Assembly: GCA_964504715.1 (NCBI GenBank) | Contig: CAZDEP010000001.1 | Coordinates: 16,830-80,829, forward strand | DNA: 64,000 nt | Reading direction: 5' to 3' | Source of the DNA: an uncultured Candidatus Saccharibacteria bacterium | GTDB lineage: Bacteria > Patescibacteriota > Doudnabacteria > UBA920 | Shown: in pieces, positions 8,198 through 60,364 of the stretch | Layout: the number at the start of each line of letters is the position of its first letter | Numbering within the stretch: the stretch's first letter is position 1 | Program-made: the position numbers and the translations under genes | Notes under the pieces: generated by a model | The model's input: only the letters and a program-made list of their open reading frames with translations | What the model was told of the DNA's origin: nothing | Databases searched by the model: none

Positions 8198-8650
8198 ATG
8201 CAATATCCGGTACCACAATTCACCGATGTAGAGGACAAGCTCATAGGGCCTTTGGGCGCTAAGCAGTTTTTTATTGTTTTCGCAGCGGGCATCCTTATTT
8301 TTGCCGGATATTCCGCCACCAAAAGCATAGTAGCTCTCATTTTGCTGATTGTAATTTTCGGCTTGCCGGCTTTGGGTCTGGCGTTTGCCAAAATCAACGG
8401 CAGGCCCGCTTACAGGCAGCTTGGCTTTTTAATGTCTTTTTTTACCGCGCCCAAAAAACTGATTTTCCATAAAGAAGCGGTAAATTTTTCCCAAGAGACC
8501 AAAATGAAGGACATAAAGCTGGAAACGCAAGATACGGGGCCGGTTGAATCAAAAGAAACCACCCAGCAAAGGCTAAAAACAGTCCAGGAGCTATTAAGGA
8601 AACAGCAGGAAGAGGAAGAGATGCTTATTGACAAAATTGACCATAATTAA
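8198..8650 (+). CDS. PrgI-family (VirB3-analogous) small membrane protein of Gram-positive-type T4SS
   Basis: N-terminus VPQFTDVEDKLIGPLGAKQFFIVFAAGILIF matches the PrgI consensus (vp.di..EDKi.GPLtlRQf), followed by two TM helices. It sits directly upstream of VirB4, as in conjugation operons. Confidence 0.6.
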   Translation: MQYPVPQFTDVEDKLIGPLGAKQFFIVFAAGILIFAGYSATKSIVALILLIVIFGLPALGLAFAKINGRPAYRQLGFLMSFFTAPKKLIFHKEAVNFSQETKMKDIKLETQDTGPVESKETTQQRLKTVQELLRKQQEEEEMLIDKIDHN

Positions 8651-8744
8651 AAAATTGACAAAATTATGAAGCAGAAAATTAAGTCCTAAAGCAAAAAGCA
8701 ATTTTGTCATTTATGTCAATTTTTTAAATTTTGTCAATATTTAT

Positions 8745-9431
8745 ATGGAAATGGAAAAGAAAAACAAAACCGCGGTAAAAAGCACCCAAAGTTTTTTGCG
8801 CCTCAGTGAAATAAAAAACGACACCGTGGTGGTGGACGACGGCACTTTAAGGGCCATAATTGCGGTTTCGTCCACAAATTTTGACTTAAAAAGCCAGGAC
8901 GAACAGGAAGCAATAATTTTTAATTACCAAAGATTTTTAAATTCCCTGGAGTTCCCGGTCCAAATTTTAATGCAGAGCCGCAAAATGGAAGTGGGGGCCT
9001 ACGTGGAAAAGCTCAAAAAGCTTTCGGAAAAGCAGACTAACGAGCTGTTAAGGGTGCAGACGGTGGAATATACGGAATTCATAAGCCGGCTAATAGAAAA
9101 CGCCAGCATTATGAACAAGAATTTTTATGTCATAGTGCCTTTGGGAAAAAGCATAACACCAAGCCCGGCTGGGATTTTTAGCCGGATATTTTTGGGCGGA
9201 AAAAGCAAGGAGGCCGCCGAAAGGATACAAAATTTTGAAAAAAACAGCGAAGAGCTTTCAACGAGGGTTGTTGCCGCCATTGGCGGGCTTTCCCAGGTGG
9301 GCCTAAAGGCTGTCCGCTTAAGGACGGAGGAAATTATCCAGCTTTATTATAATTCCTATAATTTTGAAAGCGGCCCCGTTATTGACCCTAAAAGCTTGGC
9401 CGAGATAAAACTGGCTGAGCCACAAAAATGA
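8745..9431 (+). CDS. virB4: VirB4/TrbE-family ATPase, N-terminal fragment (aa 1 to about 228); the rest of the gene resumes at 9921 after an inserted element
   Basis: TVVVDDGTLRAIIAVSSTNFDLKSQDEQEAIIFNYQRFLNSLEFPVQILMQSRKMEV is the canonical VirB4/CagE N-terminal motif (lkdGslraiievsginfdL.seeEqe.ii..fq.fLnsLdfpiQi...sr). The ORF stops about 20 bp before the element's left TIR. Confidence 0.65.
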   Translation: MEMEKKNKTAVKSTQSFLRLSEIKNDTVVVDDGTLRAIIAVSSTNFDLKSQDEQEAIIFNYQRFLNSLEFPVQILMQSRKMEVGAYVEKLKKLSEKQTNELLRVQTVEYTEFISRLIENASIMNKNFYVIVPLGKSITPSPAGIFSRIFLGGKSKEAAERIQNFEKNSEELSTRVVAAIGGLSQVGLKAVRLRTEEIIQLYYNSYNFESGPVIDPKSLAEIKLAEPQK

Positions 9432-9450
9432 ATAGTGAAGTAAGAATTAT

Positions 9451-9910
9451 TCAGATCTGCAGATGGGCGGATTTTACAGATACCTACAGATTTTAAAAGA
9501 TAAAGCTTATGGAAAAAAATGAATTCCTGTACGGTGACGAGACTTATAAATTAAGGGGACTGCTTTTTTCTGTTCATAACGAACTTGGCAGGTTTGCCAA
9601 AGAAAAACAATATTGCGACAAAGCCGAGGAAAAGTTTATCATTAACCAGTGGCCACATGTTAGAGAACCCCAAATCGGAGATATTGGTGATAGACCGGAT
9701 TTTATAGTCTGGGACTTAATTGTTGTTGAGTTTAAAGCAAAACCGTATTCGCAACAATCAGATTTTGAGCAGGTGCAACGTTATTTGCAGCAGACTAAAT
9801 TGAAATTAGGCATACTGGTAAATTTTAGGGCAAAATATTTGAATCCCCAAAGAATTTTGAATATTAATCATCTGCAGGTATCTGTAAAATCTAAAGATCT
9901 GTAGATCGGA
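9451..9910 (+). mobile_element. Element of about 460 bp, bounded by ~33-bp terminal inverted repeats, carrying a GxxExxY-family ORF and inserted into the VirB4 gene
   Basis: Left end is acagatgggcggattttacagatacctacagat. Right end is atctgcaggtatctgtaaaatctaaagatctgtagatcgg, the reverse complement of the left end with a few mismatches. A cargo-less copy of the same ends abuts at 37296-37392. Confidence 0.6.
9509..9904 (+). CDS. GxxExxY-family protein (PD-(D/E)XK nuclease-like fold), cargo of the inserted element
   Basis: LLFSVHNELGRFAKEKQY resembles the family motif (..v..eLGpGflEsvYe..). The spacing here is GxxxxExxY, so the match is a variant. The ORF's C-terminal codons lie inside the right terminal inverted repeat. 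Confidence 0.5.
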   Translation: MEKNEFLYGDETYKLRGLLFSVHNELGRFAKEKQYCDKAEEKFIINQWPHVREPQIGDIGDRPDFIVWDLIVVEFKAKPYSQQSDFEQVQRYLQQTKLKLGILVNFRAKYLNPQRILNINHLQVSVKSKDL

Positions 9911-9920
9911 ATAAAATATC

Positions 9921-11765
9921 TTGAGTATTTTTAAAGCAAAAACCGAAGAAGAGTTGCAGGCCAAAAAAGCCCGGCTCGAGGAGATGGAGCAGGAAAGCAA
10001 TGCGGGCAGGCGGCTTAAGGAAGTGGAAAAAACTTACCGCGAAGGGCTGACGACTCTAAAAGATTTAATAGCGCCCGCGGCTTTGAATTTCCAGGGCTCC
10101 CATTTTGAGCTGAACGGAAAATTTGCCCGTACGTTTTTTGTGCTTGCGTACCCGCGTTTTTTGTCCAGCAATTGGCTGTCGTTTATTATAAACGCGGAAG
10201 GCGCGCTGGACGTTTCTATTTTTATTTACCCCATAAATTCGGAAACCATTTTAAAGAAGCTTAAATCCAAAGTCGGCGAAATTGGTTCGCAAATGGCCAT
10301 TAACCAGGAAAAAGGCATGGTCAGGGACCCTATGCTCGAAACCGCTTACAAAGACGTGGAGTCTTTGCGCGATTCGCTGGTGCAAGGCACGGAACGCTAT
10401 TTTAGGGTAGGAATTTATTTTACGGTTTACGCCGAAGATTTAAAGCAGCTGGAAGCATTTTCCACTTCGCTTGAGAGCTCTTTGGGTTCCAAATTAATTG
10501 TTACCAAGCGGGCAATAATGCAAACCCAAGCCGGCCTGAATTCCTCTTTGCCTTTGGGGTTGGACGAACTTGATGTCGGCAATAACATGAATACCGGGCC
10601 ACTTTCCACGACTTTTCCGTTTGTGTCTTCGGACGTAACTTCCAACGACGGCATATTGTACGGCATTAACCGCCATAACAACAGCTTAATTTTGTTTGAC
10701 CGGTTTGCCATGGAAAACGCCAACAGCGTGGTTTTTGCCAAGTCCGGCGCCGGCAAATCTTACGCCATTAAGCTGGAAATTTTAAGGAGCTTAATGGTGG
10801 GCACGGAGGTCATAGTTATTGACCCGGAAAACGAGTACAAACATTTGGCCGAAGCCGTGGGCGGCACCTATTTAAACGTTTCTTTAAACAGCAACTCCCG
10901 AATCAATCCTTTTGATATTCCCGTGGGCCTGGAGGGCGAGGACAATACCGACATTATGCGCACCGCCGTGGTAAACCTTTTGGGGTTGGCGAATTTGATG
11001 GTCGGGAAATTAAATCCGACCGAAGAAGCGCTTTTGGACAAGGCCATTTGGCAAACCTATGCCAAAAAAGACATAACCCCCGAGCTGGCGGATTTTAAGA
11101 GCATTGAACCTCCGACCATGAACGACCTTTTGGAAATTTTGGCCGGCACGGTGGGCGCGGAGAATTTGGCCCAGCGGTTTTCTAAATTCACGGAAGGCAC
11201 TTTTGCGGGACTGTTTAACCAGCCGACCAATGTGGTTTTAAACAACTTGCTGGTGGTTTTTTCCATTAGGGATTTGGAAGAAGAATTGAGGCCCATCGCC
11301 ATGTATATAATCCTAAATTATATATGGAATATTGTCAGAAGCGAATTAAAAAGAAGGATTATGGTAATTGACGAAGCCTGGATCCTTATGCAGCACGAGG
11401 ACAGCGCCCGTTTCCTGTTTGGCATAGCCAAAAGGGCCCGCAAATATTATTTGGGCCTGACAACCATTACGCAAGATGTGGTGGATTTCATGAACAGCCC
11501 TTACGGCAAGCCGATTGTTACTAACTCTTCCATCCAATTGCTTTTAAAACAGTCACCGGCTGCCATTAACGTAATTGCCGAAACTTTCTTTTTAACCGAA
11601 GGCGAAAAATACCTGCTTTTGGAAAGCGAAGTGGGCGAGGGGATTTTCTTTGCGGGCAACAAGCACGCGGCAATTAAAATTTATGCCTCCTACGTCGAAG
11701 ACCAAATTATAACCACGGACCCGAAGCAGTTATTAGAGATAAAAGAAAGCCAGGAAACAGTTTAA
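9921..11765 (+). CDS. virB4: VirB4/TrbE-family T4SS ATPase, remaining ~614 aa: middle domain plus C-terminal AAA+ ATPase
   Basis: LKDLIAPAALNFQGSHFELNGKFARTFFVLAYPRFLSSNWLSFIINAEGALDVSIFIYP matches the VirB4 middle-domain consensus. Walker A is FAKSGAGKSYAIK, Walker B is RIMVIDEAW. The track's first codon is TTG. Confidence 0.85.
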   Translation: MSIFKAKTEEELQAKKARLEEMEQESNAGRRLKEVEKTYREGLTTLKDLIAPAALNFQGSHFELNGKFARTFFVLAYPRFLSSNWLSFIINAEGALDVSIFIYPINSETILKKLKSKVGEIGSQMAINQEKGMVRDPMLETAYKDVESLRDSLVQGTERYFRVGIYFTVYAEDLKQLEAFSTSLESSLGSKLIVTKRAIMQTQAGLNSSLPLGLDELDVGNNMNTGPLSTTFPFVSSDVTSNDGILYGINRHNNSLILFDRFAMENANSVVFAKSGAGKSYAIKLEILRSLMVGTEVIVIDPENEYKHLAEAVGGTYLNVSLNSNSRINPFDIPVGLEGEDNTDIMRTAVVNLLGLANLMVGKLNPTEEALLDKAIWQTYAKKDITPELADFKSIEPPTMNDLLEILAGTVGAENLAQRFSKFTEGTFAGLFNQPTNVVLNNLLVVFSIRDLEEELRPIAMYIILNYIWNIVRSELKRRIMVIDEAWILMQHEDSARFLFGIAKRARKYYLGLTTITQDVVDFMNSPYGKPIVTNSSIQLLLKQSPAAINVIAETFFLTEGEKYLLLESEVGEGIFFAGNKHAAIKIYASYVEDQIITTDPKQLLEIKESQETV

Positions 11766-11770
11766 TTCTA

Positions 11771-11860
11771 TTGACATAATTGACAAAATTTAAATAATTG
11801 ACAAGATTGGGATTCGAAATTTTGCTCAATTTTGTTCAATTATGTCATTTTTGTCAATTT
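11771..11860. promoter_or_regulatory. Dyad-symmetric array of TTGACA-like repeats (about 3 forward, 4 reverse) upstream of the 970-aa gene
   Basis: ttgacataattgacaaaatttaaataattgacaag ... tttgctcaattttgttcaattatgtcatttttgtcaattttt. Similar arrays are at 8655-8740, 55519-55560 and 60705-60750. Confidence 0.45.
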
Positions 11861-37175: not shown

Positions 37176-37295
37176 TGCCGTTTCATTTTAAACCTGACGG
37201 CCAATATCCCTTAAATTAATTTATTTTAGAGGAGTTTGAAAATCTGACAATCGACATAATTAAAATGAAACGGTACTAAAATAATTTATTCCGAT

Positions 37296-37392
37296 ATACA
37301 GATGGGCAGATATTTCAGATAACTACAGATATTATTATAAATATTTTATTTACCATCTGTAGGTATCTGTATTATCAGATAATCAGTAAATC
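37296..37392. mobile_element. Cargo-less MITE-like copy (left TIR directly abutting right TIR) of the element that splits virB4
   Basis: acagatgggcagatatttcagataactacagat + spacer + ccatctgtaggtatctgtattatcagataatcagtaaatcgg. Each end is about 85% identical to the 9451/9868 TIRs. Confidence 0.6.
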
Positions 37393-37443
37393 GGCATACA
37401 TTAGTAATTGACCTAATTAGTTAAATTAGGCTATAATTTTTCC

Positions 37444-37725: not shown

Positions 37726-37798
37726 CCGAGCGTTTAGGGCTAAGCGCTAAGGGCTAAGATTTCTTAGCGCTATACGCTTAGCCCTTAGCCCTGAAAAA

Positions 37799-45767: not shown

Positions 45768-45850
45768 TCTCTACGAACTACGAACTGAGTGCGAACTTAC
45801 GAACATCCCGTTTCGTATATTTCGTAAAAAGTTCGTAGTTCGTAGAAAAA
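45768..45850. repeat. About 83-bp structured repeat, copy A (outer 15-bp arms ctacgaactacgaac / gttcgtagttcgtag); it is the inverted partner of copy B
   Basis: tctctacgaactacgaac-tgagtgcgaacttacgaacatcccgtttcgtatatttcgtaaaaa-gttcgtagttcgtag. The reverse complement of the inner 45 bp is found exactly in copy B. Confidence 0.7.
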
Positions 45851-45855
45851 TTTAT

Positions 45856-46911
45856 ATGAAAAACAAAATAATCTTCCTTTCCCTTATTTTTTTAGCGGCT
45901 TCGTGCAACCCGTTTAAGCAGCCGCAAATTGCCGGCGTGGCCAAATCAACGAACGGCGGCGTGGACTGGCAAGCCGCCAACGCCACCAAGGAAAATTTGG
46001 GTTCAGTGGCGGGAGTCAATGTCGCCAAAATGGATTTCGACCCCCAGAACCGCGAAGTGGTGTATGTGTCGGGGTTTAACGACGGTCTTTATAAATCAAC
46101 AGATTCGGCCGGCACTTGGGAAAGGATATTGAGCAATATTTGGGTGTTTGATTTTGCCATAGACCCTTTTGATAGCAAAATTATATACGCCGGCGGTTAT
46201 TTTGGGGACAAGGGCAGCTTGGTTAAAACCCGCGACGGGGGGAAAAGTTGGGAGGAAATTTACAGCGAAGCGACGCCGCAGGTTTCGGTAAGGGGCGTGG
46301 CAATAAACCCCATTAACACCAACCAAATTGTCATAGGCACGAGCGCGGGCGGAGTTATAAAATCCAACGACGGCGGTTTGACCTGGAAGCTGGTGAAAAA
46401 TTTCGGTGAAAGGGTAAACAGGGTCTATTGGCAGAACGGGCAGGTCTACGCTTTGGTGAGGAGCAAGGGCTTGTTTAAGTCCACCAATTTGGACAGCGGG
46501 GAATTTTCCGACCTGACTTTGAGCCTGACCAAAAGCGATAATTTTTACCAAAACTTCATTGGCATAAACGATCAAAGCTTTAACCAGGCCTATATAGACA
46601 CACTGGCCCCCGGACTGATATATTTAACAGCAGGGAAAGGGTTTTTTAAAACCGTAAACGAGGGGCAAACATGGCAGAAGTTGGCGTTGCCGGGAAATTA
46701 TGACGTAAATTTGCCTGCCCGCCCGGTTGCGGTTTATAAACAATCAAGCAATATTGTAATGGTAGGCATTGGCAATGTGGTTTACAGGTCGGCCGACGGG
46801 GGCACAACCTGGCAAACGCAAAAAGTCAATTCTTTGGGTTTTGTAAATTATATATTAATCGACCCGCAGCTTTCCCAGATTGTTTATGCTGGGAATTTTG
46901 TATCACAATAA
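45856..46911 (+). CDS. BNR/Asp-box repeat lipoprotein (sialidase-like beta-propeller fold without obvious catalytic residues)
   Basis: Lipoprotein signal LSLIFLAASCNP. There are five S/T-x-D-x-G-x-T/S-W Asp-box motifs: STDSAGTW, TRDGGKSW, SNDGGLTW, VNEGQTW, SADGGTTW. Confidence 0.6.
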   Translation: MKNKIIFLSLIFLAASCNPFKQPQIAGVAKSTNGGVDWQAANATKENLGSVAGVNVAKMDFDPQNREVVYVSGFNDGLYKSTDSAGTWERILSNIWVFDFAIDPFDSKIIYAGGYFGDKGSLVKTRDGGKSWEEIYSEATPQVSVRGVAINPINTNQIVIGTSAGGVIKSNDGGLTWKLVKNFGERVNRVYWQNGQVYALVRSKGLFKSTNLDSGEFSDLTLSLTKSDNFYQNFIGINDQSFNQAYIDTLAPGLIYLTAGKGFFKTVNEGQTWQKLALPGNYDVNLPARPVAVYKQSSNIVMVGIGNVVYRSADGGTTWQTQKVNSLGFVNYILIDPQLSQIVYAGNFVSQ

Positions 46912-46985
46912 TCTCTACGAACTACGAACTTTTTTACGAAATATACGAAACGGGATGTTCGTAAGTTCGCACTCAGTTCGTAGTT
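46903..46985. repeat. About 83-bp structured repeat, copy B (inverted copy of 45768-45850)
   Basis: tctctacgaactacgaac-ttttttacgaaatatacgaaacgggatgttcgtaagttcgcactca-gttcgtagttcgtag. Confidence 0.7.
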
Positions 46986-46999
46986 CGTAGAAAATCCAT

Positions 47000-49677: not shown

Positions 49678-50907
49678 ATGAGACAATCACATTATTTTTT
49701 AAAAACCAGCAAGACCCAGCCCGGGGAGGACCTTTCCACCAACGCGCGGCTTTTGGAGCAGGGCGGTTTTGTCCAAAAAGTTTTGGCGGGCGTTTATGAT
49801 TTTTTGCCTTTGGGCTTAAGGGTCCTTTCGCGCATTGAAAATATTGTCAGGCAGGAAATGGACAAAATCGGAAGCGAAATGTTTATGCCTGTTTTGCATC
49901 CGAAAGAAAATTGGCAGGCTACGGGCCGGTGGACGGGATTGGACGTGCTTTTTAAAATCAAATCCCAGCATGGCAGCGAATACGCCATGGGGCCTACCCA
50001 CGAAGAAATAGTCACGCCGGCGGCCCAAGCCGTAATATCTTCTTATAAAGATTTGCCTTTGGCTGTGTATCAGATCCAAACCAAATTCCGGGACGAACCT
50101 CGGGCAAAGTCCGGCCTTATGCGCGGCAGGGAATTTAGGATGAAAGACCTGTACAGCTTCCATGCGACCGCAGAGGATTTGGAAAACTATTATACCAACG
50201 TGGCCATGCCGGCTTACGAAAAAATATTTAAGCGGTTGGGCTTAAACGCTTTGCTGACGGAGGCTTCCGGCGGGACATTTTCCAAATTTTCCCACGAATA
50301 CCAGGTAGAAATTCCAAGCGGGGAAGACACGATTTACATATGCGAAAAATGCAATTTAGCCAAGAACAAAGAGATTTTTGAAGCAGGTGTAAAGTGTTCG
50401 GCCTGCGGCAGCGACAAATATAGGGAAACCAAAGCGTCGGAAGTGGGCAATATTTTTAAATTGCAGAATAAGTATTCTTCGGCTTTTAATTTGCAGTTTA
50501 CGGACAAGGACGGTTCCAAAAAGCCTGTGCTTATGGGCTGTTATGGGATAGGCACCAGCCGGCTTATGGGCGTAAGCGTGGAAAAATACCACGACGAAAA
50601 GGGCATAATTTGGCCCGAGGCCATTGCTCCTTTTAAGGTGCATCTTTTGGCGCTTAAAGGCGGGGAAAAAGCGGCCGATGAGTTGTATGAGGCTTTATTA
50701 AAGACGGGAATTGAAGTATTATATGACGACAGGGAAGCCAGCGCCGGGGTGAAGTTTGCGGATGCGGATTTAATAGGCATACCTTACAGGGTACTGGTCA
50801 GCGAAAAGACCCTCAAAGAGGAGAGTGTGGAGGTGAAAAAAAGGAGCGAGGAAAAAACAAAATTAGTTAAAATAAAAGATGTTTTACCAATTTTCCAGAA
50901 CAAATAA
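49678..50907 (+). CDS. proS: Prolyl-tRNA synthetase (short class II form lacking the bacterial editing domain)
   Basis: Class II motifs, an N-terminal pattern (FLKTSKTQPGEDLSTNARLLEQGGFVQKVLAGVYDFLPLGLRV) that reads as ProRS-like by recall, a zinc-binding insertion CEKCN...CSACG, and a C-terminal anticodon-binding domain. Confidence 0.8.
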   Translation: MRQSHYFLKTSKTQPGEDLSTNARLLEQGGFVQKVLAGVYDFLPLGLRVLSRIENIVRQEMDKIGSEMFMPVLHPKENWQATGRWTGLDVLFKIKSQHGSEYAMGPTHEEIVTPAAQAVISSYKDLPLAVYQIQTKFRDEPRAKSGLMRGREFRMKDLYSFHATAEDLENYYTNVAMPAYEKIFKRLGLNALLTEASGGTFSKFSHEYQVEIPSGEDTIYICEKCNLAKNKEIFEAGVKCSACGSDKYRETKASEVGNIFKLQNKYSSAFNLQFTDKDGSKKPVLMGCYGIGTSRLMGVSVEKYHDEKGIIWPEAIAPFKVHLLALKGGEKAADELYEALLKTGIEVLYDDREASAGVKFADADLIGIPYRVLVSEKTLKEESVEVKKRSEEKTKLVKIKDVLPIFQNK

Positions 50908-51033
50908 TTTTCAATTTGTAATTTTCAATTTTCAGTCAGTTTTCAATTTAAAATTTTTTTACTTTGGATCATTCATTGAAAATTAGAAAATAAAAATTGA
51001 AAATTTAGAGACCCTGGTCTTAAATTTTCAATT

Positions 51034-55500: not shown

Positions 55501-55689
55501 GTGGATAATATTGGCATAATTGAACAAAATTGACAAAAATAATAAAAATGACAAAAATAAAGATAATAGGATCCAAATTTCAAATATCAAATTACCAATT
55601 TCAAATAAATTTTTAAATGGCTTAATGTCAGAAATTGGAAATTTAAGAATTAAAATTTTTTTGGAATTTGATATTTGTAATTTGAAATT

Positions 55690-60211: not shown

Positions 60212-60364
60212 TTAACCTAATTGTTCTAATTGACCTAATTTCTAAACAATGACTAATGTTAAATAAACAAATGTCAAACCGCTGGAGTTCTTAGACATTA
60301 TTGTATTTGGCATGAGAAATTGTTTAGATCAATTAGAAATTAGAATAATTAGAAATTTAAAACT

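Follow-up and report, generated by a model that had tools for sequence, protein, structure and literature searches.

We analysed a 64,000-nt stretch of DNA, referred to here as the window, from an uncultured Candidatus Saccharibacteria bacterium (Doudnabacteria, UBA920 according to GTDB; assembly GCA_964504715.1, contig CAZDEP010000001.1). Within an operon for a type IV secretion system (T4SS), the window holds a 468-nt element (9447–9914) that consists of two inverted-repeat arms and one small gene in the loop, here called the cargo. Three open reading frames (ORFs) make up the immediate locus, i.e., the T4SS genes trsD (8745–9431) and virB4 (9921–11765) and the cargo (9509–9904), exactly where a preliminary description of this DNA had placed them; the distance between the two T4SS ORFs, given there as about 490 bp, measures 489 nt. 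The neighbours are operon-like as well, with PrgI/VirB3 encoded upstream and a large lysozyme-like protein downstream (Table 1).

Table 1. Features of the trsD–virB4 locus and of a related hairpin elsewhere in the window.
Feature	Position	Strand	Basis
prgI/VirB3-like gene, upstream member of the T4SS operon	8198..8650	+	PF12666 PrgI, 4.8e-09; gene order kept in related loci
trsD/TraC-like gene, 228 aa, complete, stand-alone	8745..9431	+	NCBIfam TrsD/TraD (NF041427), 6.7e-06
Left arm of the inverted repeat	9447..9491	+	45 nt, 82% complementary to the right arm
Leader of 17 nt between left arm and cargo start codon	9492..9508	+	sequence; no promoter-like site
Cargo gene, 131-aa GxxExxY protein	9509..9904	+	PF13366 and TIGR04256 above cut-off
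Right arm of the inverted repeat	9870..9914	+	shares sequence with the 3' end of the cargo; 6 nt separate it from the virB4 start codon
virB4 ATPase gene, 614 aa, TTG start, complete	9921..11765	+	CD1110 VirB4-like, 3e-107; P-loop_TraG
Cargo-less hairpin copy between secA and gatC	37286..37397	not assigned	arm matches, same pentamer spacing

The upstream T4SS ORF gives only weak matches, to the N-terminal part of the VirB4-like family CD1110 (positions 9–121) and to stand-alone TrsD/TraD proteins (under the curated cut-off of NF041427), and the downstream ORF covers positions 157–730 of the 752 positions of CD1110. Both are collinear with the full-length VirB4 model, and nothing is duplicated. 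The preliminary description had read them as a single VirB4 gene split by the element, so that VirB4 would be made as two polypeptides, would be a pseudogene, or would depend on removal of the element. Comparison with other species refutes the split. The upstream ORF is a stand-alone trsD gene in all of its 120 best homologs (70–96% identity), nearly all of which comprise 222–239 aa with a PF26593 TraC-like domain. We further compiled a species-level set of 66 loci (denoted by L numbers in the following) from GTDB genomes of Doudnabacteria and other Patescibacteria (35–81% identity), 64 of which were usable. In 64 of 64, trsD closes with its own stop codon before the ATPase gene, insert or not, and in 46 the trsD|virB4 spacer is free of any insert and shorter than 170 nt. 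TrsD aligns over residues 1–227 with element-less orthologs, no residue being missing, duplicated, or frameshifted at the junction, and the virB4 ATPases of element-less orthologs (615 aa; e.g., L001 and L004) align over residues 1–614 at 87–91% identity. The trsD stop codon (TGA, 9429–9431) has the same position in the orthologs and lies outside the inverted repeat. Read-through of this stop as a recoded TGA was considered and rejected, as an in-frame TAA follows four codons on (9441–9443) and the orthologs stop at the same position.

A TrsD gene adjoining virB4 is the published normal arrangement in Patescibacteria (PMC12102498). No other T4SS component is as abundant there as TrsD, 1,664 of its 2,272 homologs adjoin virB4, and Ca. 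Southlakia epibionticum requires it as an essential component (PMC12102498). The trsD–virB4 pair is an ancient, normal two-gene arrangement, and since the two are normally separate genes, the element in their spacer interrupts no gene. The appearance of a split VirB4 is due to this pair and unrelated to the element. Two proteins are indeed made from two genes, as one of the earlier alternatives had it, but this state is ancestral and does not result from the element. A pseudogene and a removal of the element are both superfluous explanations. Group I or II introns, inteins, and other self-removing elements were also rejected, as neither a ribozyme nor an intein is present and, on either side, the ORFs supply a stop and a start codon of their own; Rfam gave no intron or ribozyme match in the element at gathering thresholds and, in E-value mode, only a chance-level match to a small RNA (E = 0.23). 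For annotation, a TrsD gene followed by VirB4 should not be labelled as a split or pseudogenised VirB4.

The element itself is a discrete unit, and the architecture first proposed for it, i.e., inverted repeats that bound a GxxExxY gene of the PD-(D/E)XK type, is borne out. The inverted repeat is real and longer than the roughly 33 bp first assigned to it, with 37 of 45 arm positions complementary; a 23-nt core of the arm had 0 matches in 100 shuffles of the window. The cargo does enter the right arm at its 3' end, with its last 11 codons (residues about 120–131) and its stop codon (TAG, 9902–9904). A target-site duplication, suspected at 9445–9455 versus 9905–9915, found no support: the direct repeat there (9453–9467/9895–9909) is explained by the arm palindrome, because palindromic AGATCT lies inside the arms. 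The palindromic TTAT/ATAA ends could hide a duplication of the TA type.

Each arm is composed of five pentamers, which by lineage read CAGAT, CGGAT, CTGAT, CGAAT, or CTAAT and are placed 8–10 nt apart. In the left arm of the window, the order is CAGAT, CAGAT, CGGAT, CAGAT, CAGAT with spacings of 8, 8, 9, and 10 nt. The spacing of 8–10 nt persists where the pentamer sequence itself has changed, and five-pentamer arms of the NNRAT type are found around GxxExxY genes from Patescibacteria to Bacteroidia. C[AGT][AG]AT pentamers per 140 nt arm averaged 5.4 around GxxExxY genes versus 1.6 around genes of the PF05635 family, the '23S rRNA intervening sequence protein' (Mann-Whitney p = 3e-5). In a comparison of the window with L025, arm identity is 84% and 96%, whereas synonymous sites differ at 72%; by this measure, the arm sequence is conserved far beyond neutral sites. 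Pairing is kept as well, with 84% of the cells paired in six orthologous elements versus 29–44% in slid controls, and 13 stem pairs of these six elements are changed on both sides. A stem closes the complete element in its minimum free energy structure (−129.6 kcal/mol, z −4.6). Regarding the gene behind the right arm, virB4 starts with TTG in the window (9921) and in L011 (541), and with ATG in L025 and the element-less orthologs. The sole GGA usable as a virB4 ribosome-binding site in the TTG-start context of the window and L011 sits in the stem base.

The identity of the 131-aa cargo as a GxxExxY protein with a PD-(D/E)XK fold was confirmed by matches to PF13366 PDDEXK_3 (3.5e-14; 53.6 bits at a cut-off of 22) and TIGR04256 GxxExxY (7.6e-13; 48.9 bits at a cut-off of 35). 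Residues E32, D64, E74, and K76 are invariant in 40 homologs, and the cargo retains the catalytic D..ExK residues D64, E74, and K76. An AlphaFold2 model (predicted local distance difference test score of 89.7) has a compact PD-(D/E)XK core and a disordered tail of residues 125–131, which are encoded by the arm. The nearest solved folds returned by a fold search with this model are all distant and include lambda exonuclease/Cas4-like nucleases, Hjc, and a tRNA splicing endonuclease; the cargo sequence itself had no meaningful match in the PDB. Relatives were not found in viral contigs, the defence-system libraries of PADLOC gave only a marginal Cas4 match (E = 0.002), and no transposase family of Pfam, NCBIfam, PHROGs, or PADLOC matched this protein, the sole ORF of the element. 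In a survey of PD-(D/E)XK proteins, the function of PF13366 is listed as 'unknown' (PMC3424549). dN/dS, the ratio of nonsynonymous to synonymous divergence, is 0.05–0.14 between orthologous copies, and dS is saturated between the window and L025; as judged by these ratios, the cargo is under strong purifying selection. Decayed cargo genes occur as well: L007 has a GxxExxY gene with a frameshift, and the PF05635 gene of L024 and L014 is interrupted or a remnant; from their sequences, these copies show turnover. In L007/L018 (5709–8016 of an 868-kb Doudnabacteria contig), GxxExxY is in pieces of 73 and 87 aa and virB4 in pieces of 331 and 283 aa, which may be real decay or may result from long-read indel errors.

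The search for further copies returned some with cargo (L011, L025, and L081) and some without (37286–37397 in the window, L080, and L082). The empty copy in the window matches the cargo-bearing one at 28 of 32 positions in the left arm and 25 of 32 in the right arm, has the identical pentamer spacing (8, 8, 9, and 10 nt) and a loop of 24 nt, and its RNA folds at −33.2 kcal/mol (z −4.2). Scanning metagenomes with the arm core brought three further copies: L081 lies at trsD|virB4 and contains cargo, and L080, beside carA, and L082, at another unrelated locus, are empty. CAGAT-type arms were thus found at four kinds of site: trsD|virB4 (window, L011, L025, and L081), secA|gatC, beside carA, and the L082 locus. 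The outer ends TTATTCCGAT...ATCGGAATAA are largely conserved among the copies at these four kinds of locus, with one to three changes per end, and the outer terminus TTATTC.GAT of the left arm is common to copies at other loci. Repeats of an ACGAAT type flank GxxExxY genes in unrelated spacers, namely adk|map, wzm|wzt, and beside a mutase gene in Bacteroidia. The adk|map case (L085, 2475–2901) is a GxxExxY hairpin in the secY-adk-map (spc) ribosomal-protein operon, with a gene for a Y1 transposase (PF01797) some 2.5 kb downstream of it.

Two comparisons bear on the movement of the element. In L011, the element and the 5' end of virB4 are 94–100% identical to the window, while the 3' end of trsD is 63.5% identical, and identity breaks exactly at the left arm. 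As far as this alignment goes, the pattern points to recombination at the boundary of the element or, possibly, to a short contig of chimeric origin. In addition, occupancy is discordant with TrsD similarity, as relatives with 79–96% TrsD identity lack the GxxExxY element and relatives with 72–73% have it.

Across species, the length of the trsD|virB4 spacer is bimodal, i.e., either short or about 430–590 nt with one plus-strand ORF. A GxxExxY gene fills the spacer in 7 of the 64 usable loci (L018, on the contig of L007; L021; L022, on the contig of L012; L025; L032; L039; and L078), and a PF05635 gene or its remnant is present in 8 of 64 (L014, L016, L017, L019, L020, L024, L040, and L058). 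Several shorter spacers contain a hairpin without cargo; in L001, its arms and those that surround a PF05635 gene two spacers further upstream are of one family. We surveyed flanking repeats in the fetched DNA of related loci with a threshold score of 12, and inverted repeats (score of at least 12) were found to flank 11 of 16 distinct GxxExxY ORFs and 17 of 22 PF05635 ORFs, compared to 4.6% of 302 control ORFs. Each of the 40 distinct cargo ORFs points in the direction of the operon, and in 8 of 13 occupied spacers the cargo stop lies 12–17 nt from the virB4 start (16 nt in the window). These loci show that the GxxExxY and PF05635 families both occupy loops of long palindromes and replace each other at the same spacer, and insertions of about 400–500 nt inside Patescibacteria operons are probably modules of this kind.

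Individual loci add to this picture. L012 (1289–3895; GCA_038203095.1, JBBREH010000021.1) has three cargo hairpins in consecutive spacers of the T4SS operon, with PF05635, GxxExxY, and GxxExxY as cargo and an arm family of its own for each module. The closest relative, L009 (TrsD 96%), has a perfect tandem of the heptamer CTTACTA (1212–1243) after the trsD stop, i.e., a different arm type at the same site, which suggests that arms can grow by slippage of short repeats. In L026 (4682–6179), a G+C-rich insert of 1.5 kb without GxxExxY or PF05635 signal fills the trsD|virB4 spacer, unlike in the other species.

Taken together, we estimate with a probability of about 0.6 that 9447–9914 is one copy of a dispersed, promoter-less, and co-transcribed hairpin module that resembles the intervening sequences (IVSs) of 23S rRNA and carries a nuclease-fold gene in its loop. 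The anatomy, the ancestral separation of the two T4SS genes, the scattered copies with and without cargo, the alternative PF05635 cargo, the selection on the cargo, and the cargo-specific arm layout are observed in the sequences, whereas the mechanism described next is inferred. A promoter scan revealed no plus-strand site in or upstream of the left arm, and hence none ahead of the cargo. Given this lack of a promoter-like site and the constant orientation along the operon, the cargo probably relies on the operon transcript for its expression, which would require read-through transcription of the host operon. In this transcript, the arms would pair into a stem of about 45 bp, by analogy to the 23S rRNA IVS that is cut by RNase III. 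Ribosomes translating the cargo would cross the right arm and terminate 16 nt short of the virB4 start codon, so that the stem would be opened and translation of virB4 coupled to that of the cargo. The least certain step concerns the DNA: arms and gene may spread and persist as a unit because their own nuclease recognises the pentamer arrays, with spread along a transposase-like or homing-like route, and the cargo-less hairpins may be non-autonomous derivatives like miniature inverted-repeat transposable elements (MITEs). That a nuclease gene is tied to inverted arrays of a specific pentamer across phyla is best explained by a unit of arms and gene with recognition of the arms.

Several points weigh against such a module. 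Direct repeats next to the arms are absent from the window, L080, and L082, and an exact empty site did not turn up in any close relative, the L009 contig ending 32 nt past the trsD stop, so that insertion itself is putative. A protein of 131 aa is very small for a transposase, and self-mobilisation by one common mechanism is impossible for the two cargo types, as the PF05635 protein is no nuclease. The long residence at one site, the saturated dS, and the purifying selection fit a gene useful to the host equally well. The compensatory stem changes stem from only about two clades, and among the mismatches of 57 hairpins, G.U and A.C are about equally common (27 versus 25), which gives no sign of stem selection specific to RNA. 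An RNase III gene was not seen in the 64-kb window, which says little on the whole genome, and the break in identity to L011 could come from a chimeric metagenome contig of 1.2 kb.

More tentatively, and with a probability somewhat below even, the GxxExxY genes and the PF05635/Avd-like genes may form one cross-phylum class of promoter-less, hairpin-embedded genes in the spacers of highly expressed units, in which the GxxExxY nuclease would recognise the five-pentamer arrays (8–10 nt spacing) and thereby mobilise or maintain the element together with its cargo-less derivatives. If so, the spacers colonised would be those of rRNA, the spc ribosomal-protein operon, and the T4SS operon of Patescibacteria, and the classical 23S rRNA IVS would be merely the special case noticed first. 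The GxxExxY proteins and the four-helix-bundle or 23S rRNA IVS proteins each form a very large bacterial family of small proteins without an assigned function. Together with the palindrome loops that both families occupy and their replacement of each other at one spacer, the cargo-specific arm layout of the GxxExxY branch leads to the testable hypothesis that the protein recognises its own arms. In the open-access literature, we found neither a description of GxxExxY as cargo of such elements, in agreement with the preliminary description, nor one of periodic-arm hairpins in Patescibacteria, and full texts gave only incidental mentions of GxxExxY; the family of hairpin-embedded genes is apparently undescribed.

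An alternative that we consider unlikely is that nothing here is mobile, the hairpins being host features (sites of mRNA processing or stabilisation, attenuators, or protein-binding sites) and the GxxExxY gene an accessory gene of the host. Purifying selection on the cargo and its apparently long stay at the same spacer, with saturated dS, would be expected for such a gene, and the conservation of the arms well beyond neutral expectation, the many other periodic-arm intergenic hairpins in the window, the constant co-orientation with the operon, and a stop-to-start distance that suggests translational coupling agree with it. However, presence does not track the phylogeny of the flanking genes, as relatives with 79–96% TrsD identity lack the gene or hold other hairpins or PF05635 and relatives with 72–73% carry it. 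Moreover, this gene family recurs with its arm motif in operons unrelated to this one and in a second phylum, copies of these arms are scattered, a related arm family is found in either orientation, some lineages hold decayed cargo, and sequence identity drops abruptly at the arm boundary.

It is rather improbable that only the cargo genes (GxxExxY or PF05635) are mobile and target the loops of pre-existing hairpins, so that the arms would belong to the target. Empty hairpins with cargo-type arms do exist in the same genome (37286–37397 in the window; the L001 spacer compared to the arms around the PF05635 gene of L001), two unrelated cargo families share spacer and architecture, and some PD-(D/E)XK enzymes are structure-specific, like Hjc, a distant fold neighbour of the cargo. 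Against this, the arm motif and the five-pentamer layout follow GxxExxY across distant genomes (34% protein identity, from the candidate phyla radiation to Bacteroidia), as expected if arms and gene travel together, and the PF05635-type arms are without the motif.

A defence or addiction module unrelated to the hairpin, with the cargo as a Cas4-like or restriction-like nuclease or as a toxin, is very unlikely. The fold resembles nucleases of the Cas4/RecB type and PADLOC lists Cas4 weakly (E = 0.002), but this match is marginal, relatives in viral contigs were not found, and the cargo is a lone small ORF without partner genes inside housekeeping or T4SS operons.

Finally, the interruption of an intact virB4 by a transposon with terminal inverted repeats, which would have left a pseudogene, a secondarily split gene, or a gene needing removal of the element, is practically excluded, because the collinearity of the two ORFs with CD1110 (positions 9–121 and 157–730), their common reading frame, and an element length of 468 nt, a multiple of three, stand against orthologous loci that, by their sequences, refute it, with 120 of 120 homologs stand-alone, a stop codon in 64 of 64 species loci regardless of insert, the trsD stops (TGA 9429–9431, then in-frame TAA 9441–9443) outside the element, an ATPase that aligns from residue 1 with insert-less orthologs, no intron or ribozyme family in the element, and TrsD published as a stand-alone component (PMC12102498).

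Regarding other hairpins of the window, two of another family, with TTGACAAAA-like repeat arms, lie in the prgI|trsD spacer (8626–8741) and in the spacer after virB4 (11778–11859) and bracket the block of trsD, element, and virB4. Their arms contain sigma-70-like matches to TTGACA-N16-AATAAT at 10–11 of 12 positions. A pair of CGAAC-type hairpins (45770–45846 and 46914–46991) has identical 17-nt stem cores and mutually reverse-complementary loops, the two members lying in opposite orientations on either side of a 351-aa gene (45856–46911). Further periodic-arm intergenic hairpins were found at 55576–55689, 50906–51005, 37729–37792, and 60241–60328. The TCAAAT/ACAAAT and TTTTCAA types of hairpin in the window match arm families that flank PF05635 genes in L007/L028 and L017, respectively; a PF05635 gene was not found in the 64-kb window.

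Among known systems, integron cassettes likewise combine a promoter-less ORF with an imperfect palindrome. Here, the repeat flanks the ORF rather than following it, and an integrase gene was not among the called genes of the related loci, no test having been aimed at this analogy. Homing endonuclease genes, free-standing or intron-borne, and TnsA-type PD-(D/E)XK nucleases are small nuclease genes with a patchy distribution, a fixed site, and a cycle of intact and decayed forms. The element resembles homing endonuclease genes in its patchy, phylogeny-incongruent presence at a fixed site and in the occurrence of intact and decayed copies; it differs in that no intron or intein context is present, the gene lies inside a palindrome, and purifying selection has lasted unusually long. 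Correia/NEMIS elements of Neisseria, ERIC, REP/BIME, and MITEs are dispersed, multi-copy, imperfect intergenic palindromes that are co-transcribed and occur in either orientation. Dispersed palindromes with conserved inverted termini, and cargo-less copies beside a cargo-bearing form, are found here as well. In contrast to these repeats, no target-site duplication was found, the arms are periodic arrays of pentamers about 45 nt long, a conserved protein gene lies in the loop of some copies, and no known transposase family or RAYT is linked to the element, the window ORFs not having been screened for Y1 transposases.

The flanking genes correspond to the pair of TrsD and TrsE/VirB4 in T4SSs of the MPF-FATA type (pGO1/pSK41 prototype; in Patescibacteria, PMC12102498), from which nothing essential differs here: a stand-alone protein of about 200–230 aa, remotely homologous to the VirB4 N-terminus, is encoded directly upstream of virB4 and beside prgI/virB3, in an operon of the prgI/virB3-virB6 type. 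The closest counterpart in anatomy is the 23S rRNA IVS with an ORF, known from Coxiella burnetii and Leptospira (PF05635 '23S_rRNA_IVP'/S23p). The Coxiella IVS comprises 428–444 nt with a 28-bp terminal stem and a PF05635 ORF and is excised by RNase III (PMC4990558). Its size is close to the 468 nt of the element, its termini are likewise complementary and form a long imperfect stem (28 bp compared to 45 here), one small ORF of about 120–135 aa fills the loop, and it is located inside a highly transcribed unit without a promoter of its own (PMC4990558); in addition, a PF05635 ORF with the same architecture occupies the trsD|virB4 spacer of other Patescibacteria. The differences are the location in an intergenic spacer of an mRNA instead of helix 25 or 45 of 23S rRNA, the window being without rRNA, the cargo, which is a PF13366 PD-(D/E)XK protein and not a four-helix-bundle PF05635 protein, and the arms of five periodic pentamers. 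The element is IVS-like in anatomy, while location and cargo family set it apart from the IVSs proper, and the old question of the role of the 23S IVS ORF is now linked to a wider class of elements.

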